Shown: positions 1 to 50,135, numbered from the stretch's first letter. The stretch is 64,000 nt of DNA from a bacterium (GCA_036787775.1 DAIQOR010000001.1:30521-94520); one strand, 5' to 3'. The notes: generated from the letters alone by a model not told the origin. A program made the numbers and translations.

Positions 1-25
1 TAAAATATCTTTTTTCTAAATTTAT

Positions 26-1180
26 ATGAAAATAGCCCACATAAATATGTTTTATCTTCCGACTTTTGGAGGGGTTGAAAAAGTGATGCAAGAGCTTGCA
101 GAACGTCAAGTAAAAGAGGGGCACGAAGTTCATGTCTATTGTTGTGATTCAGATAAATATAAAAGAATTGAGAAAAAAGAAGAAACAATAAACGGGGTGA
201 AAATACACCGGTTGCCCTACTGGATGAGGCTATCTTTAAACACATTTGTTTGGCCCTCTCTTTTATGGAGAGTAAAAGAAAAATTTGACATTTTACACAC
301 GCATGTGTCAGGCCACGATTATGTTTTATTTGCAGGAATCTTAGCAAAATTACAAAGTGCCAAACATGTTCACACAACGCATTGCCCCTGGACAGATTCA
401 TCATTTCGTCCAAAAATTTTAAGGCCTTTCATTTTTTTGAATGATTTATTTTTTAATAAATTGTCATTTAAATTAACAGATAAAATTTTTTCAATTACAC
501 CTTGGGAAGTTCCAATTTTAAAAAAATATTGCGAAGAAGAAAAAATAAAAGTTATTCCGAATGGCATGGATGAAATTCTTTTTAAAAAAATAAAAAATAA
601 TAATTTTAGAAAAAGAAACAAAATTACAGAAAAATATTTAGTTTTATTTTTTGGAAGATTAAATCCCACAAAAGGTCCAGAAAAGTTAGTACAGGTAGCA
701 ATTAATATTTCTAAAAAAAGAAAGGACATAGCTTTTGTGTGGGTCGGTCCAGATGAAGGCAAAGCAGAAGAAGTAAAAAGTTTAATTAAATCTCATAAAA
801 ATATGAAATATCTTGGGCCAATTCTGGGAAAGGAAAACATAGCCGAGATGTATCAATCCGCAAATGTTTATGTTCTTCCGAGTTACAGGGAAGGGTTACC
901 TTTAACATTATTCGAAGCGATGGCCTCTGGGCTCCCAATAGTTGCTTCTCCAGTAAATGGAATTCCTTATGAAATGAAAGAACCAGATAATGGATTTTTT
1001 GCTGAATACGGAAATCTTAAAGAACTCGAAAAAAATATTTTAAAAATTTTAGATAACCCCCAATTAGCAAAAAAAATATCCACAAAAAACATCCAAAAAT
1101 CTAAGCAATATTCTTGGGATTTAATTTCAAAAAATTACTTAAATGAATATAAAAACTTAAAAACGAAATTAAAGAGGTAA
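26..1180 (+). CDS. Glycosyltransferase family 4 (GT-B, retaining)
   Basis: C-terminal GT4 signature EGLPLTLFEAMASGLPIVAS (E-x7-E motif), 384 aa; first gene of glycosylation locus. Confidence 0.75.
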   Translation: MKIAHINMFYLPTFGGVEKVMQELAERQVKEGHEVHVYCCDSDKYKRIEKKEETINGVKIHRLPYWMRLSLNTFVWPSLLWRVKEKFDILHTHVSGHDYVLFAGILAKLQSAKHVHTTHCPWTDSSFRPKILRPFIFLNDLFFNKLSFKLTDKIFSITPWEVPILKKYCEEEKIKVIPNGMDEILFKKIKNNNFRKRNKITEKYLVLFFGRLNPTKGPEKLVQVAINISKKRKDIAFVWVGPDEGKAEEVKSLIKSHKNMKYLGPILGKENIAEMYQSANVYVLPSYREGLPLTLFEAMASGLPIVASPVNGIPYEMKEPDNGFFAEYGNLKELEKNILKILDNPQLAKKISTKNIQKSKQYSWDLISKNYLNEYKNLKTKLKR

Positions 1181-1184
1181 CTCT

Positions 1185-2726: not shown

Positions 2727-3417
2727 TTCTTTCAAAATATTCAGTCACATCCTCAACACCTGCCCAATGAAACCCTGCCTGCCTCAATTTACAAGCTAAA
2801 CAAAATCCACAATGTTTTTCCTTTCCAACATAACAACTAAAAGTTTTTTTAAAATCAACACCTAATTTTTTACCTATCAAAATAATATCTTCTTTATCTT
2901 TTTTTATCAGCGGAGCTTTTATTTCAAAATTCCCCGAACAACCAATCTTCGCAAGGCGATTTATTTCTCGAACAAATTCTTTTGTTGTGTCTGGATAACT
3001 TTCATCACCTTCGCATTTGAATCCCACAAAAATATCACAGTTTTCCTTATTTTTCACAAATCTCGATTCCGCAAGTGCAAGAGCATAAGTCAAAAAAATC
3101 GTGTTCCGACAAGGCACATAATATTTTTCCGATTCCTCTTTTGTGTCCTTCAAATCTTTTTTACTAAGTTTTTTTATTTCACCTTCTTTATTAATTAATG
3201 AACCCGAGATTTCTCCCAACCAATCCAATTTTATCTCTTCAAATTCAGCCCCAAGATTTTCAGCACAACTTTTTGAACATTTTCTCTCTGAATCCAAGGA
3301 TTTTTGTCCATAATTAAAAAAAAGCACCAAAAGCTCATAACCCGCGTTTTTCGCGAAATAAGCGGTTGTAACGCTATCAATTCCTCCCGAGCACAGAATT
3401 ATTGCCTTCTTCTTCAT
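2719..3417 (-). CDS. queC: 7-cyano-7-deazaguanine synthase QueC (PP-loop ATPase)
   Basis: N-terminal PP-loop ILCSGGIDSVTTAYF and C-terminal Zn-site C-x7-C-x2-C-x2-C (SCYVGKEKHCGFCLAC). Confidence 0.7.
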   Translation of the reverse strand: MKKKAIILCSGGIDSVTTAYFAKNAGYELLVLFFNYGQKSLDSERKCSKSCAENLGAEFEEIKLDWLGEISGSLINKEGEIKKLSKKDLKDTKEESEKYYVPCRNTIFLTYALALAESRFVKNKENCDIFVGFKCEGDESYPDTTKEFVREINRLAKIGCSGNFEIKAPLIKKDKEDIILIGKKLGVDFKKTFSCYVGKEKHCGFCLACKLRQAGFHWAGVEDVTEYFERII

Positions 3418-3466
3418 AGTATTTCATCTCGGCAAACTTTATAAGTTTTAATTATTCTCCCTCTCT

Positions 3467-3661
3467 ATGAAAAAGAAAGCAAGTGAACTAACAAAAGGTG
3501 ATAAAATAAATTTAGCGAATAAGTCTTTTGTAATAAAAGAGTTCGAACTTTCTGAAATCGGAAAACACGGCAAGCGAAAATGTCGTATTGAAGCAGAATC
3601 CGAACAAGGCGAAAAGATAACAATTATCCGTCCGGAAGACTATCCAGTAGAGACCCTATGA
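3467..3661 (+). CDS. eIF-5A-like mini-protein (N-terminal SH3-like domain only; hypusine-loop-like GKHGK)
   Basis: 64 aa; TKGDKINL...SEIGKHGKRKCRIEAE closely parallels the aIF5A in this window (SKTGKHGHAKCRIEAM); stop TGA overlaps start of downstream GT2 (ATGA). Confidence 0.5.
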   Translation: MKKKASELTKGDKINLANKSFVIKEFELSEIGKHGKRKCRIEAESEQGEKITIIRPEDYPVETL

Positions 3662-4563
3662 TTAATATTATAATCACTTCCTACAACGAACCCAAAGCAA
3701 CCCTTCGGGCGGTAAAAACATTTTTAGACCAAAAAATTAAAGAAGATTTCAAAATAATTGTGGTAGACCCTTTCCAAGAAACAGAAGATTTTCTTAAAAA
3801 AAATATTAAAGATAAACGAGTAAACTTTTTTTTAGATCCGGGAGAGGGAAAAAGTTACGCACTAAATTTGTTATTCCAAGAAAATTTTTCTGAAAATAAA
3901 AACGATTTATTTATTCTAACTGATGGAGATGTTTACGTCTCAGAAAATTCCTTAAATGAAATAATAAAAGCATTCAAGGCTAAAGAAGTCGGATGTGTTG
4001 CAGGAAAACCCACAACTCTAGACTCAAAAAAAACAAAATATGGTTTCTGGTCTCACTTCGCGTTTGAAGGAATCCATCAAGCAAGAAAAAAATTATCCGA
4101 AAATAAAAAATTCTTTGAATGCTCGGGATATTTATTTGCCATAAGAAATTCAGTCCTATTTGACTTTCCTTTGGAATCTTCCGAAGATTCAATAATCCCT
4201 TATTTATTTTGGGAAAAAGGTTACAAAATAAAATATGTTCCAGAAGCAGAAGTTTATGTGAAAAATCCAGACAATTGGAAAGATTGGTTAAATCAAAAAG
4301 TAAGGAACATTAAAGGTCACGAAAATTTAAACAAAATCGCTCCCAACATGCCACGAACTAAATCTCTATTTAACGAAATAAAACATGGATGGAATTTTTT
4401 ATTTTTTTATCCAAAGAACATCCAAGAATTATTCTGGACAATTCAATTATACTTCGCAAGGTTATACCTTTATTTCAAAGCCTTCAAAGAATTAAGATTA
4501 AACAAAAAATATTCCGATGGTTGGAGAGAAACCGAAATAAATTCCACAAAACCTTTAGATTAA
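3658..4563 (+). CDS. Glycosyltransferase family 2 (GT-A)
   Basis: IIITSYNEP N-terminus, DxD-like TDGDVYV, 301 aa. Confidence 0.7.
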   Translation: MINIIITSYNEPKATLRAVKTFLDQKIKEDFKIIVVDPFQETEDFLKKNIKDKRVNFFLDPGEGKSYALNLLFQENFSENKNDLFILTDGDVYVSENSLNEIIKAFKAKEVGCVAGKPTTLDSKKTKYGFWSHFAFEGIHQARKKLSENKKFFECSGYLFAIRNSVLFDFPLESSEDSIIPYLFWEKGYKIKYVPEAEVYVKNPDNWKDWLNQKVRNIKGHENLNKIAPNMPRTKSLFNEIKHGWNFLFFYPKNIQELFWTIQLYFARLYLYFKAFKELRLNKKYSDGWRETEINSTKPLD

Positions 4564-4962
4564 TTTTTTTAGCGCTTTTTTTAACTCTTCAACTGACTCA
4601 AAAATTTTCATAGAACCAATTAAAATTGCGCTCAAATATTCAATTGCATTTTCAACCGGCTCGTCAGTTTTTATTCCAAAAGTAGGCACGCCTTTCGCAT
4701 AAGCATAACCAATCTCCCAAGCAGTTCCAGCACCAACATGAAGCCCGTCAAGATTTGCCAAAACGAAATCACAATTTTCAAAACCTTTAATTATATCTCC
4801 TTCGAAAATTTTTTTTACATCTTGAACCTCGCTATATAATCCAACATCTCTATGGGGCAAAAAAGTTTCAAAACCCAAAGATTCGCACAATTCAGCAAGA
4901 ACTTCCAATCGTTCTCTTTCTGTCTTGTTCGTCAATTTTCCCGCAATATACACTTTCTTCAT
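4555..4962 (-). CDS. Nucleoside 2-deoxyribosyltransferase-like protein (PF05014-like)
   Basis: MKKVYIAGKL... and DGLHVGAGTAWEIGYAYAKGVP motif typical of NDT-like Rossmann family; 135 aa. Confidence 0.55.
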   Translation of the reverse strand: MKKVYIAGKLTNKTERERLEVLAELCESLGFETFLPHRDVGLYSEVQDVKKIFEGDIIKGFENCDFVLANLDGLHVGAGTAWEIGYAYAKGVPTFGIKTDEPVENAIEYLSAILIGSMKIFESVEELKKALKKLI

Positions 4963-4995
4963 AAACCTTATATAACGAACCCCGTTTTAAAGTTT

Positions 4996-6357
4996 ATGAA
5001 GCTTGTAATAATTAAATTAGGCGCATTAGGAGATGTAGTCCGAACGCTCCCTTTAGCAAAAGCGCTAAAACAAAAATATCCCGAGGCAGAATTAACCTGG
5101 ATAACAAATCCAAATGCAATCACAATTTTGGAAAATAATCCCCATATAGATAAAATTTATTCTTCAAATGAAGAAATTTCAGAAACATTTGATAAATTAT
5201 ATAATTTTGATATTGATGATGAAGCAACAAATTTATCATCCAATATTGAATCAAAAGAAAAGTTCGGATTTTACAATTCAGACGGATTTGTTTCAGCTTT
5301 TAATTTAGGTGCAGAATATTACCTAAACACACTTTTTGATGATGAACTAAAAAAGGAAAATAAAAAAACTTATCAAGAGATGATGTTTATGGTTGCCGAA
5401 ATTCCTTATAATCAAGAACACGAGACAATTTATTTGACCAAGGAAGAAATAAAATATGGAAAAAAATTTATTCAAGAAAATAAACTTTTTGAAAAGAAAA
5501 TAATCGGAATAAATATTGGAGCTTCCTCAAGGTGGCCATCAAAAAAATTACATGAAGAAAATTTAAAAGAATTAATAAAAAAATTATCTAAACACGAAAA
5601 TCACATAATTCTTTTAGGAGGTCCAAACGAAGTTGAATATCTTGAAACAATTCATAAAGAATTTCAAGAGTTTCCAAATATAATCAAAAATAATCCTTCA
5701 AATTCTCTAAAAGAATTTACCTCAATAATCAATATCTGCGACGAATTAATTTGTGGAGATACTTTAGCACTACATCTTTCAATCGCGCTAAAAAAACCAA
5801 CAATTGGATTATTTTTCTGTACATCTCATTCCGAAGTTGAAGATTATAATCTACTTAAAAAAATAATTTCTCCAAAATTTGATGAATTTTTTCCAGAGAA
5901 GATGGATCAATATGATGAAGAGTTAGTAAAAAGTATTTCCTGCGAGATGATTTTAAATTCATTAAATAAACCTGTTAAAGTAGCAAATGCCATGATAAAA
6001 AATGGAGACAAATTTTTAGTAATCAAAAGAAAAGATGAAGAAATTCATGCAGGGAAATGGATGTTTCCTGGAGGAGTTTTAGAAGATAATGAAAATTTTG
6101 AAGAAGCATTAAAAAGAGAAATAAAAGAAGAAGTTGGTTTAGAAATAAATCAAATAATAAAAGAAATATCAAATTATAAATACCTTCGACCTGACGGAAA
6201 AATTACCCTTGGAAAAAGTTATTTAGTTAATACAGAAGATTTTAATGTTGAAACTAATGGAGAAGTCGAAGATTTTAAATGGGTGACTTTAGAAGAATTC
6301 GAAAAATTAGATTCAATAGAAGGTTTGGCGGAAGAATTATTAGATACTTTTGAATAA
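4996..6357 (+). CDS. GT9 (heptosyltransferase-like) glycosyltransferase fused to C-terminal Nudix hydrolase domain
   Basis: Start moved to internal ATG (MKLVIIKLGALGDVVRTLP = GT9 N-terminal signature); C-terminal Nudix box GGVLEDNENFEEALKREIKEEVGLE (GX5EX7REUXEEXGU). ORF-track start 4852 overlaps the convergent gene. Confidence 0.65.
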   Translation: MKLVIIKLGALGDVVRTLPLAKALKQKYPEAELTWITNPNAITILENNPHIDKIYSSNEEISETFDKLYNFDIDDEATNLSSNIESKEKFGFYNSDGFVSAFNLGAEYYLNTLFDDELKKENKKTYQEMMFMVAEIPYNQEHETIYLTKEEIKYGKKFIQENKLFEKKIIGINIGASSRWPSKKLHEENLKELIKKLSKHENHIILLGGPNEVEYLETIHKEFQEFPNIIKNNPSNSLKEFTSIINICDELICGDTLALHLSIALKKPTIGLFFCTSHSEVEDYNLLKKIISPKFDEFFPEKMDQYDEELVKSISCEMILNSLNKPVKVANAMIKNGDKFLVIKRKDEEIHAGKWMFPGGVLEDNENFEEALKREIKEEVGLEINQIIKEISNYKYLRPDGKITLGKSYLVNTEDFNVETNGEVEDFKWVTLEEFEKLDSIEGLAEELLDTFE

Positions 6358-6391
6358 AAACAAATAAAAACGCTTTTTGGCTAAATTTATT

Positions 6392-7924
6392 ATGGACGAA
6401 ACTCAGAAAGAATTAGAAAATAGAAAAAAGAAAATTCTAAACAAAATTATTCCCTTCATGAAGGAACCACTAAATCTTGCTTTAGTTACAGTTTTATTAT
6501 TCGCATTTGTCTTAAGATTATATTATTTCATAAAAGTAGGAAACCAGCCTCTTTGGTGGGATGAACTTTGTTATGGAAGTTTAGCAAAAAATTTTATAAC
6601 ACACACGTGGGATAGCACAACCTTAATCTTAGGAGAAACGGCAATAAGGCCAGTCCTTTTTCCCTTACTTTGGTCAATTCTTTTAAGAGTCGGAATTCCA
6701 GAAGGAGGAGTAAGATTTTTTTTAGAGTTTATTCCTTCAATTCTTTCTGTATTTTTTGTTTATCTAATTGGCAAAGAAACATTTAATAAAAGGGTAGGGA
6801 TTATATCCGCATTTATTTTTTCAGTTTTATGGATACACTTATTTTATACAGTTAGATTATTAACACATGCCCCCGCACTAGTATTTTTATTTTCCAGCAT
6901 ATATTTGTTTATGAAAGCTACGGAAACAAAATTTAATTTCAATCTTTTCACCATATCATTAATCCTTCTTTCTCTCAGCACATTAATGAGATATCCAAAG
7001 GGAATAATTTTCTTTGTGTATTTATTTATGTTGGTAATAGATAAAAAATTACTATTAAAAAATTTCAAATTTTGGAAAGCGGGCATTTTAGGAATCTCTC
7101 CAATGATCGTGTTTTTTATTTATAATTTTGTAAAATACCAAAATATATTTCCTGCCCTTTTAGGAGGAGGATATCTGGATAAAGGGGGATCCCCCCTTAT
7201 TAAACCGATTGCGTTTAATCTTTTAAATTTTATTCCAGTTTATCTTAAAACAACTTTCTTTATATTTTTCTTAATTGGTTTATTGTTAATTTTATTTGAA
7301 TTAATCACAGGATACAATTTAATACCAAAGATAAAAAAACTGAAAAATAGTCTAATTTTAATTTTAATTTTAATTTTAATTTATTCATTTTTCATATTTT
7401 ATATGCGAGCTGCTGAAGATAGATGGTTATTTCCAACAATTTTACCATTAGCAATTATAACTTCTTTAGGAATTGATTTTGTCTATAATCAAATAAAAAA
7501 ATATAACAAACAAATAGCAGTCTTATGCGTGATTCTTATTTTAGGATTTGGAGCTTATTCGCAATTAACTTTTGCAGATTCGCTGATAAAAGGAAAGCAA
7601 GAAAGTTACCTTCAGATGAGACAGGCATTCGAATGGATAGGTTCTAACACCCCTGAAGATTCAATCATAGCCGGTTTAGGGATAGAACCTTATACTGTTT
7701 ACTATGCAAAAAGAGATTATATCAATCTCCCCCAGAATTATTCGGAAGTTGGAGTGGCTTTGGAGGCAGATTATCTTGTAGCACATCTTTTTGCGGGAAA
7801 TCCTCCAAAATATTTAAGTGAATATCTTTCTGAAAATCAAGATATTTGGCAGCCCTTAAATGCCTGGTTTTTAGATGAAGCAAAAACTCAACCAGCAGTT
7901 ATTTTATATAAAAAGGTTCAATAG
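6392..7924 (+). CDS. GT-C fold membrane glycosyltransferase (ArnT/PMT-like, GT39/GT83-like)
   Basis: About 12 predicted TM helices, first-loop WWDE acidic motif; ORF track starts at TTG 6377, first ATG at 6392. Confidence 0.55.
   Translation: MDETQKELENRKKKILNKIIPFMKEPLNLALVTVLLFAFVLRLYYFIKVGNQPLWWDELCYGSLAKNFITHTWDSTTLILGETAIRPVLFPLLWSILLRVGIPEGGVRFFLEFIPSILSVFFVYLIGKETFNKRVGIISAFIFSVLWIHLFYTVRLLTHAPALVFLFSSIYLFMKATETKFNFNLFTISLILLSLSTLMRYPKGIIFFVYLFMLVIDKKLLLKNFKFWKAGILGISPMIVFFIYNFVKYQNIFPALLGGGYLDKGGSPLIKPIAFNLLNFIPVYLKTTFFIFFLIGLLLILFELITGYNLIPKIKKLKNSLILILILILIYSFFIFYMRAAEDRWLFPTILPLAIITSLGIDFVYNQIKKYNKQIAVLCVILILGFGAYSQLTFADSLIKGKQESYLQMRQAFEWIGSNTPEDSIIAGLGIEPYTVYYAKRDYINLPQNYSEVGVALEADYLVAHLFAGNPPKYLSEYLSENQDIWQPLNAWFLDEAKTQPAVILYKKVQ
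7354..7383 (+). repeat. Tandem hexanucleotide (aatttt)x4-5 inside GT-C gene, encoding (LI)n
   Basis: aattttaattttaattttaattttaattta read directly; in-frame. Confidence 0.8.
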
Positions 7925-38229: not shown

Positions 38230-39026
38230 TTTAATTTCGCCCCCAATTCATTTATTGCATTTTCAGTATAAACTGTCAATCTTCCTAATCCACCATTAGC
38301 CAAATCAACAACGCTCAATTTATCTGAATGAACAATTTCAAAAGAGCCAGATTTTAATTTTTCTTCTTTACCGACGACAATCAAAAGTCCAGCATTAGAT
38401 TTATATTTTCTTCCTCGCAACTTTCCGATTCCTGCTCGAACACTTCTTTTCTTTTCAATAGCTGCGAATAAATCTTTTCCAATAATTTGTTTAATACTTT
38501 CAATAAGTTGCTTAGCTTTTAATCCAGTTAATTTTGAATCCACAATAAATGGAACATTAGTAATTTTAGTTTCATTTAATCGAGCATACCTTTTTGAAAT
38601 TAATTTTCCCTCGGCAGTCGCACTCAAAGCCGAAATAATTGCAATTTTCAATTCTTTTTTATTAATTTTATTTGTGTTAATCATAGAAATTACTTTTGGA
38701 GGATGAGCCCTTCGACCGCCTCGAGTGTTTGGAACTGTCGCACCAACCCAATTAAATTGCGAACCTTTTCTCGATAAAGCTTTTCGAGGAATTCTTGACA
38801 TTCCACGACCATACTGACTTTTCCAAACATGTCTATGATGTTTAATTTTTCCCGAGGCTGAAGCCTGATTTCCTGCAACTGGCGACGGAGCGTAAGGCTG
38901 TATTTGTTTTTTAGCTTCAATAACTTTAGCAACAATATCTTCTCGGATTTTACCAGAAAGAACCTTTGGCTTTTCAATCTCCTTTCCTTTCTGCCCTTTC
39001 AAATCATAAACTTTAATTTTTACCAT
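38226..39026 (-). CDS. rpl4: Ribosomal protein uL4
   Basis: 266 aa, GRGMSRIPRKALSRKGSQFNWVGATVPNTRGGRRAHPPK. Confidence 0.85.
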   Translation of the reverse strand: MVKIKVYDLKGQKGKEIEKPKVLSGKIREDIVAKVIEAKKQIQPYAPSPVAGNQASASGKIKHHRHVWKSQYGRGMSRIPRKALSRKGSQFNWVGATVPNTRGGRRAHPPKVISMINTNKINKKELKIAIISALSATAEGKLISKRYARLNETKITNVPFIVDSKLTGLKAKQLIESIKQIIGKDLFAAIEKKRSVRAGIGKLRGRKYKSNAGLLIVVGKEEKLKSGSFEIVHSDKLSVVDLANGGLGRLTVYTENAINELGAKLK

Positions 39027-39970
39027 TATGCTTTAACTCCTAATAATTCGTAATTTTTCTTTTTAGTTCTTTTAGTTTCTCTCAAAGGAGAAGTAATTAA
39101 CAATTGTCTTTTTGCAACACCTTGAATCGAACCTTTAACAATCATATAATTTGTTTTAACTTCCCCGAAATGTTTCAAAATAGGAATTTGTCCCTCGGAT
39201 TTTCCCATATCGATTATTTTATTGTTGTAAATAACTCTGGTAAACATTCCAAGCTGTCCAGCCATTGGAACTCTAAAAGTTACACGAGCAGGATGCCACG
39301 GACCAAGACTACCAGGCCGTCTAACTCCCTTCTCTGACTTGTGTGCCTTAAGATTAATCCCAAATCTTCTTACAGGACCTTGGAAACCCTTTCCTCTTGT
39401 CAAACCTCTCAAATCAACCAATTCGTCTTTAGCAAAAACATTTGTAACGGAAATTTCTTTATCCAAATTTTCTTTAATAAAATTAAGTTTCTCTTCAATA
39501 GTTCCTTTCAGTCCCAATTCAGATAAATCTGGCTTCTTCCTAAATCCAGTTTGTTTTGCAACAGAATAACAAATAACTCTCAAATCATCATATTCATCTG
39601 ATTTAACATCCTCAATTTTTTTCGAATAAGTTTTCGGAACTTTCACCTTTCTTTTTAATTCCTTGTCAAGTTTTCCCGCGAGAACTTCTTTAGCAACTTT
39701 TCCATCTTTATAGAATCTAACTGAAAAAATCTTCATAGAAGGGCACTCAAGAACGGTAGCAGGGATAATTATTTTTTTACCTTTAGTCATGGAGTTAGCA
39801 GAATTATCCAAAACCTCAACAGAAACCATTCCAGCTTTATAACAAATAAACCCTTTCAAATTTTTTCCAGATTTTATTGCATCCCAGTTCACACTCGGTA
39901 AATGTTTTTCTGCACGTTTACGCGGCCAAAACTGTAAACTTCCTTTTCTTGGTGATTTTCTTGATGGCAT
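39026..39970 (-). CDS. rpl3: Ribosomal protein uL3
   Basis: 314 aa, first gene of cluster; GFQGPVRRFG, W..ARVTFRVPMAGQLG. Confidence 0.85.
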   Translation of the reverse strand: MPSRKSPRKGSLQFWPRKRAEKHLPSVNWDAIKSGKNLKGFICYKAGMVSVEVLDNSANSMTKGKKIIIPATVLECPSMKIFSVRFYKDGKVAKEVLAGKLDKELKRKVKVPKTYSKKIEDVKSDEYDDLRVICYSVAKQTGFRKKPDLSELGLKGTIEEKLNFIKENLDKEISVTNVFAKDELVDLRGLTRGKGFQGPVRRFGINLKAHKSEKGVRRPGSLGPWHPARVTFRVPMAGQLGMFTRVIYNNKIIDMGKSEGQIPILKHFGEVKTNYMIVKGSIQGVAKRQLLITSPLRETKRTKKKNYELLGVKA

Positions 39971-41894: not shown

Positions 41895-43370
41895 ATGAAG
41901 CTAAAAGTAAAACTATGGAGGTGGTCGGCAGGAGTTCCAGTAGCTATGCTCAATAGCAAAATAGCCCAGGAAATGGGCGTTCACGCGACAGATAGGATTT
42001 CAATAAAAACCTTTGAAAAAAATTCTATGGAATTTTCCACAGTGGTAGACACGATTGGAGTCTTTGTAAAAAAGAATGAACTCGCAATCTCTTTTGAGAT
42101 AAAAGAAATTTTAGGATTAAGAGAAGGACAAATCGTGGACGTGAACATCGCAGAAACTCCAAGAAGTTTAATTTTCATTAAAGAAAAATTAGATAAAAAA
42201 GAACTTTCCAAAAAAAAGATTTTTGAAATAATTGAAGACATTGTAAATAATTCTTTATCCGAAGCTGAAGTCGCACTTTTTATTTCTGCAATGCACATAC
42301 ATGGAATGAATTTTAAAGAAATAACTTATTTAATTGAGGCAATTTTAAATTCAGGGCAAATGATAAGTTGGGGCAAAAAATTAATTGCGGATAAACATTG
42401 TATTGGAGGAGTTGCAGGAAATCGGACAACGCCAATAGTTGTTTCAATTTGTGCGGCGGCTGGCTTAACAATTCCAAAAACTTCTTCAAGAGCAATAACG
42501 AGTGCTGCCGGAACCGCGGATGTAATGGAAGTAGCGGCCAAAGTAAATTTTAACATGAAAGAAATTAAATCAATAGTAAAAAAAACAAATGCTTGCATCG
42601 TCTGGTGCGGAGGATTAGGAATGGTTCCAGCAGATTCAAAAATAATTAAAATTGAAAAACAACTTAAGATAGACCCAAAAGCACAACTTTTAGCATCGAT
42701 AATGTCCAAAAAACTTTCAGTTGGAAGTAATCATATTTTGATTGATATACCCTACGGAAAAAGTGCCAAATTCGATAAGAAAAAAGCTTTGGAATTAAAA
42801 AAAGATTTTGAGAAGTTAGCAAAATATTTTAAGAAAAAAATGAAAGTTGTTTTAACGGATGGTTCTCAACCAATCGGAAATGGAATTGGCCCACGATTAG
42901 AATTAATTGATGTGATTAAAGTTTTAAATCCAGAAGAAAGCGGACCTTTAGATTTAGAAGAAAAGTCAATTTTTCTCTCCGGACAACTTTTAGAATTAAC
43001 TGGAAAAGCAAAGAAAGGAAAAGGAGAAGAATTGGCGAGGAAGATTCTTGTTTCAGGAAAAGCTTTTGAAAAATTCAAACAAATCATCAAAGCCCAAAAT
43101 GGGAGTTTGAAATTAAAAGAGAACGGCAAATTCAAGAAAGATATATTTGCAAAAAAGAATATGATAATAAAATCCATTCACAATAAAAAAATTAATTCTC
43201 TCGCAAGAGTTGTAGGTTGTCCAGTGGACAAATTCTCTGGAATATATCTCTACAACCACGTTGGAGACAAAGTCAAGAAAGGAGAAAAGCTTCTCACAAT
43301 TTACTCAGAATCCAATGCAAGATTATTGGATGCGGTAAAGTTCTATAATGAAGTCAAGCCAATTAATTAA
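41895..43370 (+). CDS. AMP phosphorylase (thymidine phosphorylase family, archaeal DeoA-like)
   Basis: N-terminal extra domain followed by HCIGGVAGNRTTPIVVSICAAAGLTIPKTSSRAITSAAGTADVMEV (phosphate/ribose site of TP family); 491 aa. Confidence 0.75.
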   Translation: MKLKVKLWRWSAGVPVAMLNSKIAQEMGVHATDRISIKTFEKNSMEFSTVVDTIGVFVKKNELAISFEIKEILGLREGQIVDVNIAETPRSLIFIKEKLDKKELSKKKIFEIIEDIVNNSLSEAEVALFISAMHIHGMNFKEITYLIEAILNSGQMISWGKKLIADKHCIGGVAGNRTTPIVVSICAAAGLTIPKTSSRAITSAAGTADVMEVAAKVNFNMKEIKSIVKKTNACIVWCGGLGMVPADSKIIKIEKQLKIDPKAQLLASIMSKKLSVGSNHILIDIPYGKSAKFDKKKALELKKDFEKLAKYFKKKMKVVLTDGSQPIGNGIGPRLELIDVIKVLNPEESGPLDLEEKSIFLSGQLLELTGKAKKGKGEELARKILVSGKAFEKFKQIIKAQNGSLKLKENGKFKKDIFAKKNMIIKSIHNKKINSLARVVGCPVDKFSGIYLYNHVGDKVKKGEKLLTIYSESNARLLDAVKFYNEVKPIN

Positions 43371-43414
43371 TTCAACACAACTAATTTTTTAAATGAGTGA
43401 TTTTATAATTAAAT

Positions 43415-43684
43415 ATGGAAGAGAGTAATCCAATAAGAAAACTTGTAATTTATTTTAAAAAAAATCTGGAGAAAGGATATACCGAGGAATCTCTGAAAGT
43501 GGCTTTAATGAATCAAGGATATTCAAGGACAATGATAGAGCGAGCGGCTGAACAACTTCACCAAGACCTCGCGAGGACAGCACCAATTCTAAAAGACAAA
43601 CCAATAATCAAACACTACATCATCGACGAAAACGACCAACCAATAACAATTAAGAAACCTTTTTGGAAAAAAGTTTTTGGATAA
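43415..43684 (+). CDS. Hypothetical small protein (89 aa)
   Basis: ORF only. Confidence 0.3.
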   Translation: MEESNPIRKLVIYFKKNLEKGYTEESLKVALMNQGYSRTMIERAAEQLHQDLARTAPILKDKPIIKHYIIDENDQPITIKKPFWKKVFG

Positions 43685-43758
43685 AACGCCCTGTTTTTAG
43701 TTGAATTATAGATGATAACGGCGTTTTTAAAAGCTTCTTTTTTTAAACAATTCAATCA

Positions 43759-44502
43759 TTATCTTTGTTTCTCTATGGGTTTCCAATCTCTCGAACTATA
43801 TTCAAGTATTCCCTCGAGTAGTTTTTGCCTAACATATGCAATTATTCCATGAGATTTAATTCCCCTATCTTGTTTTGTATTTGGTATCTCTCTAAGTTTA
43901 TCTAAGAATTTAGAATACTCTGGAAGAACCACCGATTTTATCTCTGCAAGAATATCTCTGGTTGCTTCTCCATGATGTTTCTCATTCAAATATTTTTTTA
44001 AATCTGTAGTTTTATTATTTAATGTAAGAGTATACCATATACTTTCACGCATTACTGGATTTTTCACCTCACTTAATATCTTTCTAAGCAATATTCTATC
44101 AATTATTATATCCGCATAATCTTTACAATTATTTTCTCTTTGGTATATTCCAATAAGAGAAGTTTCTTTTTGTGTGTATGGAAAATCTGGCGATTTAAGT
44201 AATTCCTGCGTGAATGCTTGATACTCTGGTGAAGATTCCCATTTAGTTCTATATCCTTCATCATCATGATAAAAAGCATTTAACCCATCTAAATCAATAT
44301 TTCTTTTCAGTGCATCTTCTTTATGTTTTTCAACAATAGCTAATACGCTCTCTAATGGTTTATCTGTTTCAATTTTTCCACTATAATCTATTTTTTTTAA
44401 AATTAGGGCTTGAGCTTCTCTTGCTCCCCAAGCATCTTTACGATTCATCCATTCATAAATATCTGCTGAAAGATGTTTGTATGTTTCATCCTCATTTGTC
44501 AT
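43759..44502 (-). CDS. Hypothetical protein (247 aa), downstream gene of two-gene operon
   Basis: ATGA overlap with upstream 137-aa gene; no recognisable motif. Confidence 0.35.
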   Translation of the reverse strand: MTNEDETYKHLSADIYEWMNRKDAWGAREAQALILKKIDYSGKIETDKPLESVLAIVEKHKEDALKRNIDLDGLNAFYHDDEGYRTKWESSPEYQAFTQELLKSPDFPYTQKETSLIGIYQRENNCKDYADIIIDRILLRKILSEVKNPVMRESIWYTLTLNNKTTDLKKYLNEKHHGEATRDILAEIKSVVLPEYSKFLDKLREIPNTKQDRGIKSHGIIAYVRQKLLEGILEYSSRDWKPIEKQR

Positions 44503-44912
44503 TTTTGTTTTTCCTCCTGTGCTCTTACATATCCCCCACTACCACGTCCTTCCCAAAATTGACTTTTATAGAAATATTCGACAGATTCATCTGCCCCTTC
44601 AGGCATAAATGGTACGCTAAGGGGAAGATATTCTCTCTTATATCCTGCCTTGAATCCTTGAAAGTAAGGATCAGAAATCAATACTTGAAAATCCTCTTCC
44701 AAAACACTACCCTTTAGCCCTGAACATGAATAAATTATACATGGGGGTAATCCTGCTTCAAAACAGATTCTTTCCAGTTCAAAATTAGCGGGACCAATCT
44801 CCTTATCATAGCTGAATCGCTCTGCTACAACTCTCTTTCCAATTTCAATATCTTCTTTCAATATTTCTGTTATTTCTTTTGTCATTTTCTTGTTTTTTAT
44901 TTTTATTGTCAA
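44499..44912 (-). CDS. Hypothetical protein (137 aa), upstream gene of two-gene operon
   Basis: Translationally coupled to 43759..44502. Confidence 0.35.
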   Translation of the reverse strand: MTIKIKNKKMTKEITEILKEDIEIGKRVVAERFSYDKEIGPANFELERICFEAGLPPCIIYSCSGLKGSVLEEDFQVLISDPYFQGFKAGYKREYLPLSVPFMPEGADESVEYFYKSQFWEGRGSGGYVRAQEEKQK

Positions 44913-45044
44913 GTTAAATTAACTAATGGCTAATTTGTATTAACTTGTTAATAGTATCAGTTATGGATGGTATTTAATATATTGTGGTGGTTATTACCAC
45001 CAATAAAGTAAAGATTTTTATAGTCAATTTTGTTATGTTTTTGT

Positions 45045-45788
45045 ATGCATGAAGAATTGTTTGGAGAGCTTGGATTGAGTTTAAATGAAGCAAAAGTTTA
45101 CGAAGCCTTATTGCAAATTGGAGAATCATCTGTACAAACTATTTCACTGAAATCAAAAGTTCACAGAAGAAATGTTTATGATTCCTTGAGCAAACTAATG
45201 GAAAAGGGACTTGCTTCAGAGGTGTTTATTAAAGGAGAGAAAAATTTCAAGGCGACAAACCCTGATAGATTGCTGGATTTATTAAAAGAAAAAGAGGAAA
45301 AGATAAGTAAAGTTCTTCCTGATTTAAAATCAAAATATGAATCTGTTGAAGAGAAAGAAGAAGCATATCTTTATAGAGGCATTGAAGGATTCAAGAATTA
45401 TCTTAAGGCAATTCTAGAGACAAAGGAAATAGTTTATTTTATAGGGGCAAAAGCTTTTTGGCTTGATGAGAGATTGCAATATTTTATGCCTCATTTTGAA
45501 AAAGAAAGAAAGAAATTAGGAATAAAATTTATGCATCTATTTGATTACGAGATTAAAAAAGAAAAACTAAAAATATTAAAAATGGTTGGTAAACCTTATA
45601 GATTCTTGCCAAAAGAATACTCTTCCAATACTGCTATTGATATTTTTGGTCCATATGTTGTAACATTTGTAGGAGTAAAACCGGGACAACTTCAAGAAGA
45701 GCCATTAATGTTTGTAATGAAAAGCAGAAAACTTGCTGATGGATACAGAAAGTTTTTTCAATTTATGTGGGATAATTGTAAGGAATGA
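45045..45788 (+). CDS. TrmB-family transcriptional regulator
   Basis: N-terminal wHTH LGLSLNEAKVYEALLQIGESSVQTISLKSKVHRRNVYDSLSKLMEKGLA plus C-terminal TrmB-like domain; first ATG used (ORF-track TTG 45030). Confidence 0.65.
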   Translation: MHEELFGELGLSLNEAKVYEALLQIGESSVQTISLKSKVHRRNVYDSLSKLMEKGLASEVFIKGEKNFKATNPDRLLDLLKEKEEKISKVLPDLKSKYESVEEKEEAYLYRGIEGFKNYLKAILETKEIVYFIGAKAFWLDERLQYFMPHFEKERKKLGIKFMHLFDYEIKKEKLKILKMVGKPYRFLPKEYSSNTAIDIFGPYVVTFVGVKPGQLQEEPLMFVMKSRKLADGYRKFFQFMWDNCKE

Positions 45789-45796
45789 ATTTTTAC

Positions 45797-46279
45797 TCAA
45801 TCAAGCCCATACATCTTCTCAAATTCCCCTCTTATCTTTGTTATTTCTTCAAGGGTTATTGTATTAATCTTATTTTTTATTTCCAGAATAAATTCTCTAA
45901 GTTTTGTAATGTCAACATCTACTTTTTTATTCTTCAGGTAATATTGATTATCTATTCTCAAATCTTTATCTTTAGATAATATTTTTGTGAAGCCCTTAGG
46001 AACAATTCCTCTTCCTTCAAGAAATCCACAAACTCCAATTGTGCAGTCATGTATCTCACATTTAATTCCTAACTTTTGAAGAAGAGCATAAATCACAAAA
46101 TACTCGCAGTAATATTTTGTTGTTGCCAGCCACATATTTGACTTGCCTTTTATATCCTGTAAAATCATCAAGGTTTCTTCAGAACTTTTGATATAATCAT
46201 TTGCCAAATTTTCATTGGGTTTGACAATTTTTATCCCGTTCTTTTGTTGACAGCACCACTTTAATTTTTCAGCATCCAT
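45797..46279 (-). CDS. HEPN-domain protein (putative toxin partner of MNT)
   Basis: Helical 160-aa protein immediately downstream of and overlapping (19 nt) a minimal nucleotidyltransferase gene; canonical Rx4-6H not evident. Confidence 0.45.
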   Translation of the reverse strand: MDAEKLKWCCQQKNGIKIVKPNENLANDYIKSSEETLMILQDIKGKSNMWLATTKYYCEYFVIYALLQKLGIKCEIHDCTIGVCGFLEGRGIVPKGFTKILSKDKDLRIDNQYYLKNKKVDVDITKLREFILEIKNKINTITLEEITKIRGEFEKMYGLD

Positions 46280-46818
46280 TTTATAATTTCTTCAGAGTTC
46301 TGAACTATTAAATGTTTATTTATTATTTCTTCTTTTAGAGTTTCGCTTATGTCCGATAAGCTCTTTAAATTGATAATATGAAATTTAACTCCAAACTTTT
46401 TTTCAAATTCTTTTACACTTTTTGAGCTTATCTTACCCTCAAGAATAACATCAATATCATTTGCCTTTTTTGTTCCTTCTACTGAAGATCCAAAAATTAA
46501 GATTTTTCCCGAAGCTTCTCCAAGAAAATAAACTATCTCCTTCATCAGCAAATCCTTATGGATTACTTTAGCTAATCTTTCTTTCTCAATCCAAGTGAGA
46601 TAAACAATTATGCTTGGATTTTTTAATTGGAGTTTATACATGGTCATTCTACCCTTGATTTGCTTGGTAACTAATCCCTGCTTTTCAAACTCATTAAGAT
46701 ATTTTCTAACTGTTGCATGAGGTTTATTTAACTCTCGAGATATTTCAGCCAAATGCTTAGATTCTTTCTGATAAAGCAATGGTTCTAAAAATGACCATTT
46801 GGATATATTCTTGACCAT
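46261..46818 (-). CDS. wHTH-fused minimal nucleotidyltransferase (MNT/MntA-like antitoxin)
   Basis: N-terminal HTH (HLAEISRELNKPHATVRKYL) + NTase motif ILIFGSSVEGTKKANDIDVIL (GS...DxD). Confidence 0.6.
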   Translation of the reverse strand: MVKNISKWSFLEPLLYQKESKHLAEISRELNKPHATVRKYLNEFEKQGLVTKQIKGRMTMYKLQLKNPSIIVYLTWIEKERLAKVIHKDLLMKEIVYFLGEASGKILIFGSSVEGTKKANDIDVILEGKISSKSVKEFEKKFGVKFHIINLKSLSDISETLKEEIINKHLIVQNSEEIIKWMLKN

Positions 46819-47065
46819 ATTGTTATAATTGTAATAATAGTTTTTAAATGCTTTGTTTTTGAAAAAAACGTACTAGAGTAGAGGCGTACAATAGAAAGTT
46901 CGACGCCCTCATCGCCCCCGCCAGTCTCACAACCTTATTTTGATTTCTCAAATTTACTTCAACTTTTAGATATTGCATAAAATCAGATAGCTCGGTCGAA
47001 CTAATAAAAATAATCTTGGAATTTTGTTAAGACTCTTGGAGTAATTGGATTTACAATCCAATAAA

Positions 47066-47145
47066 CGCCCCCGGCAGGAGTCGAACCTGCGAGCCACAAG
47101 GGCCCGGATCTCAAGTCCGGTGCAATACCGTTATGCGACGGAGGC
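47066..47145 (-). tRNA. tRNA-Ser (anticodon UGA), class II with long variable arm, G73 discriminator, no encoded CCA
   Basis: Folded by hand: acceptor GCCUCCG/CGGGGGC, anticodon stem CCGGA/UCCGG with loop CUUGAGA, variable hairpin GCC-CUUGU-GGC, T-arm GCAGG-UUCGACU-CCUGC. Confidence 0.75.
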
Positions 47146-47167
47146 GTAATTACTAAATAAATCTAAT

Positions 47168-47235: not shown

Positions 47236-47538
47236 ATGCCAGAGTTAAGATATGGAGAAACTTATAACGCAAACATAACTCGAAGAAGAGAAAGAAAAGA
47301 TGTTAGTTCAAATAGAAAAATACTTTACATAGGTTCAATACAGAAAAAGAGAATGCATTTACGCTGGGGCTATTATACTTATTTTCATCAAGGAAAACCT
47401 GTCCTAAGAAAATTTAACAGTCAAAAATATAATTTTTCCAAAGAAGAGCAATTAATTATAAAAGAATCTCGTTCGGTTTCAACAAATAGATATGAAAAAG
47501 AATATCTCGAAAATATTTTACTAAAACACGGATTTTAA
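47236..47538 (+). CDS. Hypothetical basic protein (100 aa)
   Basis: ORF only. Confidence 0.3.
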   Translation: MPELRYGETYNANITRRRERKDVSSNRKILYIGSIQKKRMHLRWGYYTYFHQGKPVLRKFNSQKYNFSKEEQLIIKESRSVSTNRYEKEYLENILLKHGF

Positions 47539-47592
47539 TCCTTTTTAAAACAACACAACAATTTTTAAAAACTTCAATTTCTTAAATTCAGC

Positions 47593-48198
47593 ATGTCAAA
47601 AAAGATACCTATAATAATAGAAGATGCTGTAAGATATTCTTTAATTGATGACCATTTTTCTTGTGAAGTTTCAAAACGTCCTTTCCAATACAGAAAAGGA
47701 GAAATAGGATTAATTGATCCCGAGATTGTAGATTTTTATTCCAATCTCAAAGAAAATCTAAGAAAGTGCAAACCATCAAGAAAATCAATTTTTAACTTAG
47801 CAGGATTTCCTTCTTCCCACCAAGTAGTTCATAGAATGGAATGGGGATTAGGTTCAATTTTTTATCATTCTTCCCCCGATAAAATTCCAATCCTCGTCTA
47901 TGAAGAATCTTTTCCAAGGGGTTTGAGAACTTTAAGTTATTTATTAATAAATTTAAGAGAAGGGGAATTCAGAGATTTAACAGATTCTGAAAAAAGAAAA
48001 AATTCAAAATTAATTCAGGCACTAAAAACGTGGGAATATCATCACGATGGAGTTCAGGATTTAGCAATGGAAAATGCTCGAGCAGAAATATCTGAAGCAG
48101 AAATTTCAGTCAGAAAAGATTTATTGGAATCTTTCAAAAGATTTGAGGAAAATAGATGGCTTTCTTTTGAGCATGGAAAAAAAATAATAGTGGATTAA
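47593..48198 (+). CDS. Hypothetical protein (201 aa)
   Basis: ORF only. Confidence 0.3.
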   Translation: MSKKIPIIIEDAVRYSLIDDHFSCEVSKRPFQYRKGEIGLIDPEIVDFYSNLKENLRKCKPSRKSIFNLAGFPSSHQVVHRMEWGLGSIFYHSSPDKIPILVYEESFPRGLRTLSYLLINLREGEFRDLTDSEKRKNSKLIQALKTWEYHHDGVQDLAMENARAEISEAEISVRKDLLESFKRFEENRWLSFEHGKKIIVD

Positions 48199-50135
48199 CG
48201 CTTTCCAAAACAATCCAAAACCCGAGTATCGGGGCTCAACAATTCAACTTTATCATCTTTACTCCTAAGTCCACGATAAACTTTTTGTAACAATTCTCTT
48301 CGTGCTTTATCTTTGTAAAAACTCCAATAATGCTGTGGCTTTGTCTTCATCAAAATTTTCCAAAACGCATCCTGCACATTCGGATTAGGATATTTCGTAA
48401 ACACAATACTATTACACTGCTCACCCGGAAAATCCATACCCCGCGACGCCCGAGTCGAAAACAAAACAGTACGATTTCCCGACTTAAATTCCTCAATAAG
48501 ATTTCCCGTTTTATCTTCCGATTGAATTTCCCTCAGTTTCTCACGACTCATTAATTTATTCAATTTAAATTCCCTAATCTCATCCTGCGTCGGCAAATCA
48601 ATAAACGCATTAACATGAACCAACGTCGGACGCTTCGCAACTTCAACGCACTCATTCAAGGTCTTCAAGTAATCTTCCCGAGTAAAATTCCCACTCGAAA
48701 AATTCGCATACTTACAATCCATCTCCGAACCAACTTTTTTAACAATTATATTTCCCTGATCCTGTGTTTCAGCTTCAATCATTTTAAATTTAGTCAATCC
48801 AAAAATATTCCTCAAGACCTCCTCTGAATGAATCGTCCCCGACATCAAAACAATAACTTTATTTTTATCAACCATATCCTTAAATCTTTTTTCAAGATTA
48901 GTTGTAACAATGCTAGCAATCAAATTATTTTCACGCTTCTCAAAAGTCACATAAGAATCCGCAAAAAATCCCTCAAAAATTCGAGCAGTTTCAATAACCT
49001 CTGCCAGATAATTCTCGTCGTCAATTTCAAATAAATTATCTTTCGCCTTCAAAATTTTTTGCAACAAATCAAAAATACTCGTAGTTTTCAAAGGGAGAAT
49101 TTCATTATTGTCCAAGGATTTCTGAATCCTTTCGTCTCTTTTTATTTGCTTCAAATATTCCTGCAATTCGTCCACAACCTCGTAAGTTTCCTTACTAACT
49201 CCCAAAACATGAATCAAAGAATTCTGTAGTCTATCAATATTCAAAGTTCGCTGATTCGAAAAACTATCCAAAAACTCGTCGCACTCGTCGATAATCTCCA
49301 CCTCCGTAAGTGGTTTTCTTCCCAACGCAGATTCAAGTTTATATTTCATAGAATTAAAAACAATTATATCCGAATCAATAAACGAATGAAATTGGTCATA
49401 AAAAGCACAACCTTTTTTTCTCTGATAAAACACAAAATTCGCCCCACCCATTCCAACATAAGTTTTTTTCTTTGTTTCCTCAAAACCTTTTCCCAAATCA
49501 AATTTCTCTGGAAGCACCGGACACCAATAAGGACAAACGCTCGCCACAGGAATTCTTTTCACGTCGCTGATTTCATCATAATTTCTCATATCCACATTTT
49601 TATTTTGCTTCAAATAACTTTTCAAACGATTCCAATTTTTCTCTCTTATTTCAATTTTACACGGAATATTTTGATTGTTCGCAGAAATGTCGTCGCCAAT
49701 CATACTCATCACCTCATCTTTTTTGTCCGCAAAAATATCACTTAAGCGAGAATTAATTTCTTTCTTAAAGACCGGCACAGCATTTTTATTATCTTCTAGG
49801 AATTTACACTTGTGATTGCCTCTCCCAGTTATGACGCTAATATTTAACTTACTTCCGTCGTCCTTCAACAAATATTTACTATCTTCACTTCCATAATCTT
49901 TTTTATATTGTTCTTGCAAATTTCTTATGGGCACCACTACAGAGGTTTTTCCCAACTTCCGCCCAATGTTCAAAGCAATCGCACTTTTTCCAGTTCCACA
50001 AACTCCGTGAATAAAAATTATTTTTTCTCCTTCTTTAATCGCGTCTAAAACTTCTTTCACAACTTCCTCCTGAGATTTCCCACTAGAAAAAACAAGCGGC
50101 TTCAAAAATTCGTTATCTTTATATAAATTCCACAT
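48195..50135 (-). CDS. XPD/Rad3-family (DinG-like) SF2 DNA helicase with putative FeS-cluster cysteines
   Basis: Walker A HGVCGTGKS; Cys cluster (HKCKF, IPCKIE, VCPYWCP); DEAH-like IIDECDEF; VLMSGTI (XPD motif III-like); C-terminal STRASRGMDFPGEQCNSIVFTKYPNP (Helicase_C_2). Confidence 0.55.
   Translation of the reverse strand: MWNLYKDNEFLKPLVFSSGKSQEEVVKEVLDAIKEGEKIIFIHGVCGTGKSAIALNIGRKLGKTSVVVPIRNLQEQYKKDYGSEDSKYLLKDDGSKLNISVITGRGNHKCKFLEDNKNAVPVFKKEINSRLSDIFADKKDEVMSMIGDDISANNQNIPCKIEIREKNWNRLKSYLKQNKNVDMRNYDEISDVKRIPVASVCPYWCPVLPEKFDLGKGFEETKKKTYVGMGGANFVFYQRKKGCAFYDQFHSFIDSDIIVFNSMKYKLESALGRKPLTEVEIIDECDEFLDSFSNQRTLNIDRLQNSLIHVLGVSKETYEVVDELQEYLKQIKRDERIQKSLDNNEILPLKTTSIFDLLQKILKAKDNLFEIDDENYLAEVIETARIFEGFFADSYVTFEKRENNLIASIVTTNLEKRFKDMVDKNKVIVLMSGTIHSEEVLRNIFGLTKFKMIEAETQDQGNIIVKKVGSEMDCKYANFSSGNFTREDYLKTLNECVEVAKRPTLVHVNAFIDLPTQDEIREFKLNKLMSREKLREIQSEDKTGNLIEEFKSGNRTVLFSTRASRGMDFPGEQCNSIVFTKYPNPNVQDAFWKILMKTKPQHYWSFYKDKARRELLQKVYRGLRSKDDKVELLSPDTRVLDCFGKR

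Follow-up and report, generated by a model that had tools for sequence, protein, structure and literature searches.

In a 64,000-nucleotide stretch of DNA (GCA_036787775.1, DAIQOR010000001.1:30521-94520), referred to below in its entirety as the window, the genes around tRNA-Ser(UGA) form an ordinary plasticity hotspot and not a recognisable integrated mobile element. The hotspot is bounded by two conserved anchors, the small open reading frame (ORF) orf89 and the gene for an XPD-like helicase. This recombination-prone interval has probably been filled, in a lineage-specific manner, by two independent, self-regulated two-part modules: module A, in which a minimal nucleotidyltransferase (MNT) fused to a winged helix-turn-helix (wHTH) domain is paired with the HEPN-fold protein orf160, and module B, in which a TrmB-family regulator is paired with the small cargo protein orf247. 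The source of the window, whose GC content is ~32%, is a DPANN archaeon of the Pacearchaeota/Woesearchaeota type with a tiny genome. The original prediction had described the six small genes between AMP phosphorylase and the tRNA as a single accessory islet, foreign to its housekeeping surroundings and carrying, in its position beside the 3' end of a tRNA, the mark of an integrated element. All six ORFs were verified at the coordinates predicted for them, as was the tRNA-Ser(UGA) beside them (ARAGORN, Rfam).

Core and inserted genes

Key comparisons involved loci anchored on the AMP phosphorylase gene, 56 of them from reference genomes (39 from archaeal relatives) and 80 from metagenomes, with some loci duplicated between the two collections. 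All window proteins and tRNAs were mapped onto the fetched loci, and ~119 relatives' loci were compared. The consensus order, seen in ~110 relatives, is AI-2E-type permease, AMP phosphorylase, orf89, tRNA-Ser(UGA), a variable gap and, downstream of that gap, the XPD-like helicase. AMP phosphorylase was found in 119 of the 119 loci, and in 108 of them orf89 follows it directly, as judged by tblastn. Because of this constancy orf89 is core and not accessory, and it has to be removed from the predicted islet. The tRNA-Ser adjoins orf89, in either orientation, in 47 of 80 evaluable loci, at a spacing of 7-204 bp (median 64). Spurious ORFs consisting of tRNA-like, GC-rich sequence were noted in two gaps without an ARAGORN tRNA (L017:11971-12165 and L020:9808-10045); these gaps may hold a tRNA-Ser missed by ARAGORN, for example one bearing an intron, in which case 47 of 80 is a lower bound.

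In the window, orf89 and the tRNA 3' end are 3.38 kb apart and five genes are inserted exactly there; since the tRNA is encoded on the minus strand, its 3' end faces these genes. No counterpart of orf247, orf137, the TrmB gene, orf100 or orf201 was found in any of the ~119 relatives' loci. The MNT/orf160 pair occurs at this locus in one other lineage only (L032; L132 is from the same organism), where it occupies a different junction, between AMP phosphorylase and orf89, together with a 311-aa protein without a Pfam match and a large multi-pass membrane protein. As had been proposed, most of the predicted islet, five genes out of six, is a lineage-specific accessory insertion, and accessory status extends across the tRNA to orf100 and orf201. 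The tRNA thus serves as a boundary insofar as the insertion abuts its 3' end, but not on its other side, where orf100 and orf201 are equally lineage-specific. Comparison with related genomes, suggested as a check on the islet, showed that it is not kept at the locus in all relatives; the arrangement is polymorphic among them, with MNT/HEPN at the other junction in one lineage, and no polymorphism was seen within the species.

These data bear on whether the five genes might be ancestral at the locus and have been lost from the sampled relatives by streamlining. DPANN genomes are streamlined and readily lose genes, and a core-like composition together with the presence of the genes on every same-species contig would fit such a history. 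It would, however, need loss in essentially all of the ~110 relatives' loci across the tree; moreover, orf247 and orf137 are almost without homologs anywhere, MNT/HEPN lies at a different junction in L032, and the relatives' gaps hold other genes rather than remnants. Ancestral presence is therefore very improbable, and lineage-specific filling of the hotspot is the reading pursued here.

Variability of the hotspot and inversion of the tRNA cassette

Across relatives, the gap from orf89/tRNA to the helicase ranges from ~190 bp to >5 kb. Its cargo includes a CAP-domain protein, a GNAT acetyltransferase, two DedA/VTT proteins, BacA, an amidohydrolase, a carotenoid-synthase-like membrane protein, a PIN plus AbrB-like pair and various unknowns, and its position varies by lineage, being on the tRNA 3' side in some and on the 5' side in others. 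The PIN-domain protein with its AbrB/MraZ-like antitoxin candidate (L024:13836-14442) lies on the tRNA 5' side with several small unknown ORFs alongside, and a 168-aa ORF in another hotspot (L008:1990-2496) has a sub-threshold match to the Acb1 (anti-CBASS) family (E 9e-5, 22.7 vs 27 bits). The AMP phosphorylase/orf89 junction constitutes a second insertion site, with 0.3-4.3 kb inserted in 23 of 108 loci and spacings of <=200 bp in the other 85; examples include L032:3673-7866, L093, L094, L113 and L124.

The tRNA itself changes orientation. Its strand is '+' in 34 relatives' loci and '-' in 13, and the '-' loci are scattered over the AMP phosphorylase tree. In two sister pairs (Table 1) a ~88-bp tRNA segment, ~99% identical, is inverted in place between collinear flanks of 80-89% identity, and in one of these pairs, L086/L100, a promoter-like box has been inverted along with the tRNA. 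The scattered '-' orientation and the sister-pair inversions together imply repeated inversions.

Within the species, every contig read carries the islet. In strain L060 the five islet genes are identical to those of the window, whereas 59 differences are found within orf100-orf201 (47236-48198) as against ~6 over the other ~10 kb. The two copies of orf201 differ at 47 nucleotides and 25 amino acids and contain no stop codons. Assemblies break at 47531, inside orf100, in contigs L062 and L065 and in the NCBI metagenome-assembled genome contig. An extra 155 bp in L059 was considered as an insertion and rejected, being a scaffolding artefact (100 Ns).

Search for an integrated element

An origin of the islet as the decayed remnant of one mobile element, which integrated at the tRNA-Ser 3' end and later lost its integrase and attachment (att) sites, would account for an insertion immediately next to the tRNA 3' end that relatives lack. 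It would also accommodate the toxin-antitoxin (TA)-like modules, which mobile elements typically carry, the GC content at third codon positions (GC3) of orf247, which is the lowest in the window, and the regions around orf247 homologs, which hold a Y1 transposase, ParE, Barstar and MNT/HepT. The prediction had itself remarked on the absence of an integrase, and precomputed Pfam annotation agrees, showing none within ~10 kb on either side. No integrase or recombinase domain was detected in the six ORFs or in orf100 and orf201 (Pfam, NCBIfam, PHROGs), nor was a recombinase present among the 19 larger gap ORFs scanned; 17 gaps of relatives were examined, and these ORFs came from 11 of them.

The direct repeat expected of tRNA-targeted integration was likewise not found: the 22-nt tRNA 3' end occurs once within 3 mismatches in the 64 kb, and that occurrence is the tRNA itself. 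Smith-Waterman alignment of the tRNA with both strands of the islet gave a best score of 19 against 18.3 +/- 2.0 for shuffled sequence, so that the best alignment, an 11/12 match to the acceptor 3' strand within a GC-rich patch, is at chance level, although it would speak for a decayed element. General repeat finding returned only low-complexity, AT-rich families. Compositional comparison, also proposed as a check, gave core-like codon usage for four of the five inserted genes: GC content in the islet genes is 0.29-0.32, the same as in the remaining window, and the TrmB gene, orf160, the MNT gene and orf137 fall inside the distribution of the 65 window ORFs. The deviants are orf247, with the lowest GC3 of the 65, and orf201, at the 3rd percentile, of which only orf247 lies inside the islet. 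Three viral-contig scans, made with three proteins, and PHROGs gave no relatives. Finally, modules A and B occur separately in other genomes, and the cargo of relatives is found on both sides of the tRNA. A single integrated element is thus not borne out and appears unlikely, which leaves independent filling of a hotspot as the favoured explanation.

The GC-rich patch between the islet and the tRNA had been described as a hairpin (~46880-46935). It is indeed GC-rich (57% against a background of 32%, and up to 0.60 in 50-nt windows), but it folds no better than shuffled sequence (z +0.68 and +0.77 for the two strands). No Rfam match was obtained at gathering or permissive thresholds, no C/D-box pattern was recognised by eye, and the patch is kept only within the same species. 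On the grounds of folding, Rfam and lack of conservation in relatives, a structured RNA was rejected. The patch might conceivably derive from the 3' part of a decayed tRNA: the acceptor strand gives an 8/8 match, but no T-arm can form.

The nucleotidyltransferase-HEPN module

The orf160 family comprises >960 proteins, mostly from DPANN metagenomes, which are named 'hypothetical' or, at JGI, UPF0332. The HEPN call made for orf160 in the prediction is borne out by structural modelling, although not by profile searches: orf160, like orf247, orf137, orf89, orf100 and orf201, has no significant match in Pfam, NCBIfam, PADLOC or PHROGs. An AlphaFold2 (AF2) model with a mean confidence (pLDDT) of 93.6 has the four-helix up-down HEPN fold, and the top Foldseek matches are nearly all HEPN proteins (best E 3e-3). 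In a 32-member alignment the segments EIH77DCT and LR108IDNQY113Y114LKN are invariant. None of the 32 members has a His 4-6 residues after R108, as the canonical Rx4-6H motif would require; a Tyr occupies the His position. The orf160 profile finds a single match in the PDB, AF0298 (2HSB; E 0.13), in which KTHRGT pairs with EIHDCT and LREESDY with LRIDNQY. Members of the AF0298 subfamily lack the Rx4-6H His and have a conserved His on its N-terminal side that may provide an alternative active site, and a conserved Tyr has been suggested as the nucleotidylation target of the MNT (Anantharaman et al. 2013, PMC3710099). The invariant H77/R108/Y113/Y114 pattern, with the Arg kept, the motif His lost and a second conserved His located N-terminally, agrees with this description and supports assignment to the AF0298-type HEPN-T (UPF0332) group. 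From the modelled fold it is thus a well-supported prediction that orf160 and its family, as HEPN proteins of the AF0298 type, pair with wHTH-fused nucleotidyltransferases.

The wHTH-fused MNT was correctly recognised in the prediction, as was the overlap of its gene with that of the HEPN protein, which amounts to 19 nt. Pfam detects the wHTH and NTP_transf_2 domains below threshold (for the latter, 17.4 bits against a cut-off of 21), and the catalytic motif hG[GS]-x9-13-Dh[DE]h is present as IFGS-x9-DID, invariant in four homologs. The PADLOC model PDC-M05A (PDLC04368), which has no curated cut-off, matches the protein with E 8e-8 and 30.4 bits, residues 15-135 aligning with 23-141 of the 201 profile positions. 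PDC-M05 is a candidate defence system of a nucleotidyltransferase plus a HEPN protein, enriched in archaea, whose antiviral role is unconfirmed (PMC12988326). The gene order is that of a type VII TA system, the antitoxin gene lying upstream of, and overlapping, the toxin gene, and it is the same in L032, L073 and L074, in unrelated neighbourhoods. In L073 the pair lies beside purine-synthesis genes. In L074 (positions 1-6477) it is accompanied by an AAA_5 ATPase, several unknown proteins and a reverse transcriptase (RVT_1), surroundings that may represent a defence-island context.

The region upstream of the MNT gene (46819-46857) is 85% identical over 39 bp to that of L032. Among four loci, 21 columns are invariant, concentrated in the last 40 nt, and the upstream regions have in common a TATA-like box as well as, directly against the MNT start codon, a TTGTTA...TAACAA inverted repeat. 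These features suggest that module A is an MNT-HEPN pair of the PDC-M05 type that regulates itself and serves as a toxin-antitoxin system or is a candidate for defence. Under this proposal the HEPN protein would act as an RNase through an alternative active site formed by H77 with R108, the MNT would neutralise it by binding and probably also by AMPylating the conserved tyrosine Y113 or Y114, and the wHTH domain would repress the operon at the inverted repeat overlapping the promoter. The earlier label 'type VII TA-like' is a fair analogy in this sense, but one that must allow for the missing Rx4-6H histidine of orf160.

It is conceivable, though doubtful, that the pair has instead been domesticated as a regulatory pair, for example in RNA binding or nucleotidyl transfer, and is held by purifying selection outside any TA or defence role. 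The family is very conserved, with a mean column identity of 67% and 57-74% identity among the best 120 matches, and between the window and L032 the two proteins are 66% and 57% identical, which is at least the level of housekeeping proteins (AMP phosphorylase 55%, permease 47%). The loss of the canonical catalytic His and the purine-synthesis neighbourhood in L073 point the same way, as does the precedent of a DPANN-specific MNT-HEPN fusion that is unusually conserved and found in housekeeping contexts (NEQ050, cls.004259; Makarova et al. 2019, PMC6393860). Against domestication, neither the alternative His (H77) nor R108 varies, in line with an active site of the AF0298 type; gene order, overlap and an autoregulatory-looking promoter are classic TA features; and the location of the pair changes between genomes, the L074 copy lying by the AAA_5/reverse-transcriptase cluster. 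A TA or defence-candidate pair accordingly remains the preferred description of module A.

The TrmB regulator and its cargo

The TrmB assignment is secure (PF01978, E 1.8e-14, 53.7 bits against a cut-off of 25.6). The gene is divergent from orf137-orf247, the 'unknown coupled pair' of the prediction, whose members do overlap, by 4 nt (ATGA). Comparison with the PDB matched MJ223, TrmB and TrmBL2 over the N-terminal part only (residues 6-121); a C-terminal sugar-binding effector domain was not detected, there being no Pfam match past residue 78. For the NCBIfam TrmB equivalogs, whose cut-offs are 500-650 bits, the scores are 16-31, again through the N-terminal part only.

The all-helical orf247 belongs to a tiny family: a search of 5.8 billion clustered proteins gave two matches, and one of 1.84 billion gave 8 representative clusters. 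No relative was found in PHROGs or, with a 7-sequence profile, in Pfam or the PDB. Structure prediction gave no function, the two-sequence AF2 model being poor (pLDDT 58) and its Foldseek matches meaningless (E > 0.7, TM-score < 0.25). Two homologs were looked up, P0122 (40% identity; contigs L067-L072) and P0124 (46%; L077), and both are divergent from an ortholog of the TrmB gene. Besides the window, two other independent lineages therefore have the pairing. The TrmB orthologs, at 247 aa, are 66-73% identical to the window copy, as against 40-46% for the cargo. By contrast, orf137 is absent upstream of the orf247 homologs in L068 and L077, and its only match among 5.8 billion sequences is itself; its codon-position GC is coding-like.

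The divergent intergenic region contains the palindrome TGGTGGT-tatt-ACCACCA, which occurs once in the window (0 expected) and, among 157 fetched loci, only in TrmB/orf247 intergenic regions. These regions are otherwise unalignable, having in common GGTGGT-N4-ACCACC just upstream of a TATA-like box. The palindrome is conserved in L067 and L068, appears as a one-mismatch variant in L077 and takes the form GGTGTC-tttt-GACACC at a TrmB paralog. On good comparative evidence from these sequences, GGTGGT-N4-ACCACC is a candidate operator for regulator and cargo. There, immediately ahead of the TATA-like box of its own gene, a dimer of the regulator would bind and so control its own expression as well as that of orf247.

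The contigs that carry the homologs have features of their own. In L077:595-5783 two adjacent TrmB paralogs, 35% identical, are each divergent from a different cargo gene (one for an unrelated 238-aa protein, the other for P0124) with its own palindrome variant, and the neighbours include a ParE-like toxin pair and a Y1 (IS200/IS605-type) transposase. On the P0122 contig L067 (1093-7818) there are, in addition, a gene of the Barstar family and a separate pair of MNT and HepT (PF01934); the TrmB gene of this contig is apparently disrupted, giving tblastn matches in two pieces and a called gene of 201 aa as against 247. In three independent lineages the TrmB/orf247 cassette thus lies <=2.5 kb from a TA pair: MNT/HEPN in the window, MNT/HepT in L067 and ParE in L077. 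The further-reaching suggestion that TrmB/orf247 is an undescribed mobile DPANN module, possibly with a defence or toxin effector, and, separately, that the tRNA inversions reflect an unrecognised recombination mechanism, is distinctly unlikely.

Weighing the interpretation

Several observations weigh against independent filling of a hotspot by these two modules. A strain of the species that lacks the islet was looked for and not found: exact matches to the orf89 and MNT proteins came from islet-bearing contigs only, and genome and metagenome scans turned up nothing nearer than ~73% AMP phosphorylase identity. As a consequence, the insertion event can be deduced only from relatives at or below that identity. 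In module A, evidence for the HEPN assignment from sequence comparison is weak (the E 0.13 match to 2HSB), and orf160 is matched by no PADLOC model at E <= 0.1, including PDC-M05B, the partner of the model that matches the MNT. For a selfish TA module, the conservation of the orf160 family is unusually high and could point to a domesticated role, and the window copy of the MNT inverted repeat is degenerate. On the other side stand the gene order of the relatives, the modelled fold and invariant motifs of module A, the recurrence of each pair in other lineages and the conserved palindromes, and lineage-specific filling is still judged probable.

The correction to the original picture is the main outcome: a presumed single tRNA-flanked islet becomes a plasticity hotspot with independent small modules, and one of its genes becomes core. 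Beyond this, a large DPANN family of >960 'hypothetical' proteins gains a structural assignment and a link to the unvalidated, archaeal-enriched PDC-M05, and a tiny regulator-plus-cargo cassette is defined with a testable candidate operator, GGTGGT-N4-ACCACC. The repeated inversion of the tRNA cassette offers a handle on accessory-gene exchange in streamlined, integrase-poor DPANN genomes. The modules are largely of known kinds, and current understanding is not overturned.

Features of the locus

The features discussed are collected in Table 1. At gathering thresholds Rfam finds only two tRNAs within the window. A promoter scan with a sigma-70 model gave 17 sites against 17.3 expected, such a model being uninformative for an archaeon. 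Elsewhere in the window, at 38692-39348, there is a cluster of three 50-nt windows of 60-62% GC in this 32% GC genome.

Table 1. Features around tRNA-Ser(UGA), in window coordinates unless a locus is named
Feature	Position	Strand	Remarks
AMP phosphorylase	41895..43370	+	Pfam Glycos_trans_3N, Glycos_transf_3, PYNP_C; left conserved anchor, outside the insertion
orf89	43415..43684	+	small core protein, no assigned function; tblastn 39-66% identity in relatives
orf247	43759..44502	-	all-helical, tiny family; cargo of TrmB module
orf137/128	44499..44885	-	orphan candidate ORF, 4-nt overlap with orf247 start; alternative TTG start at 44912
Candidate TrmB operator	44985..45002	.	perfect palindrome TGGTGGT-tatt-ACCACCA in divergent promoter region
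TrmB-family winged-helix regulator, 247 aa (252 with alternative TTG start at 45030)	45045..45788	+	PF01978
orf160, HEPN-fold protein of AF0298/UPF0332 (HEPN-T) type, predicted RNase toxin partner	45797..46279	-	
wHTH-fused minimal nucleotidyltransferase (MNT), 185 aa, predicted antitoxin and autorepressor	46261..46818	-	
MNT promoter/operator-like region	46819..46857	-	TATA-like box and TTGTTA...TAACAA inverted repeat
GC-rich intergenic patch	46872..46935	.	not a significant hairpin
tRNA-Ser(UGA)	47065..47146	-	ARAGORN and Rfam (54.8 bits); hotspot landmark
orf100	47236..47538	+	lineage-specific ORF, 5' side of tRNA
orf201	47593..48198	+	lineage-specific, hyper-divergent between strains
XPD/Rad3-like helicase	48195..50135	-	Pfam Helicase_C_2, ResIII; right conserved anchor
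Inverted tRNA pairs	L086:3250-3337 vs L100:2858-2945; L115:3644-3730 vs L019:11969-12055		

Relation to known systems

The locus resembles tRNA-adjacent genomic islands in that accessory genes, a TA-type module among them, abut the tRNA 3' end and are absent from relatives. It differs from them in lacking an integrase, an att duplication and a compositional signature, in having cargo on both sides of the tRNA, and in the inversion of the tRNA cassette.

Module A is related to several two-gene systems. With PDC-M05 it has in common the combination of a nucleotidyltransferase and a HEPN protein, and the M05A profile spans both the wHTH and the nucleotidyltransferase regions, whereas the partner differs, orf160 having no M05B match. 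The type VII HepT/MntA systems (Shewanella SO_3165/3166 and the HEPN/MNT pair of Aphanizomenon) differ in several respects: orf160 lacks Rx4HxY and is not a HepT-type (DUF86/PF01934) toxin, the MNT of the window has an N-terminal wHTH domain, and the NCBIfam MntA equivalog gives the MNT 14.7 bits against a cut-off of 60. Similarity of orf160 to AF0298/2HSB is marginal in sequence (19% identity, profile E 0.13), and no Pfam HEPN model detects orf160. In length orf160 exceeds AF0298 by ~35 residues, and it has an additional helix and strand at its N terminus and a further helix at its C terminus; DNQYYLKN is invariant in the orf160 family.

The regulator of module B shares with TrmB, TrmBL1 and TrmBL2 the N-terminal TrmB wHTH domain, a length near that of TrmBL2 and a palindromic candidate site by a TATA-like box, but its C-terminal half is without detectable sugar-binding similarity. 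The TrmB motif of Thermococcales is of the TACT-N3-AGTA type, from which the candidate GGTGGT-N4-ACCACC differs.

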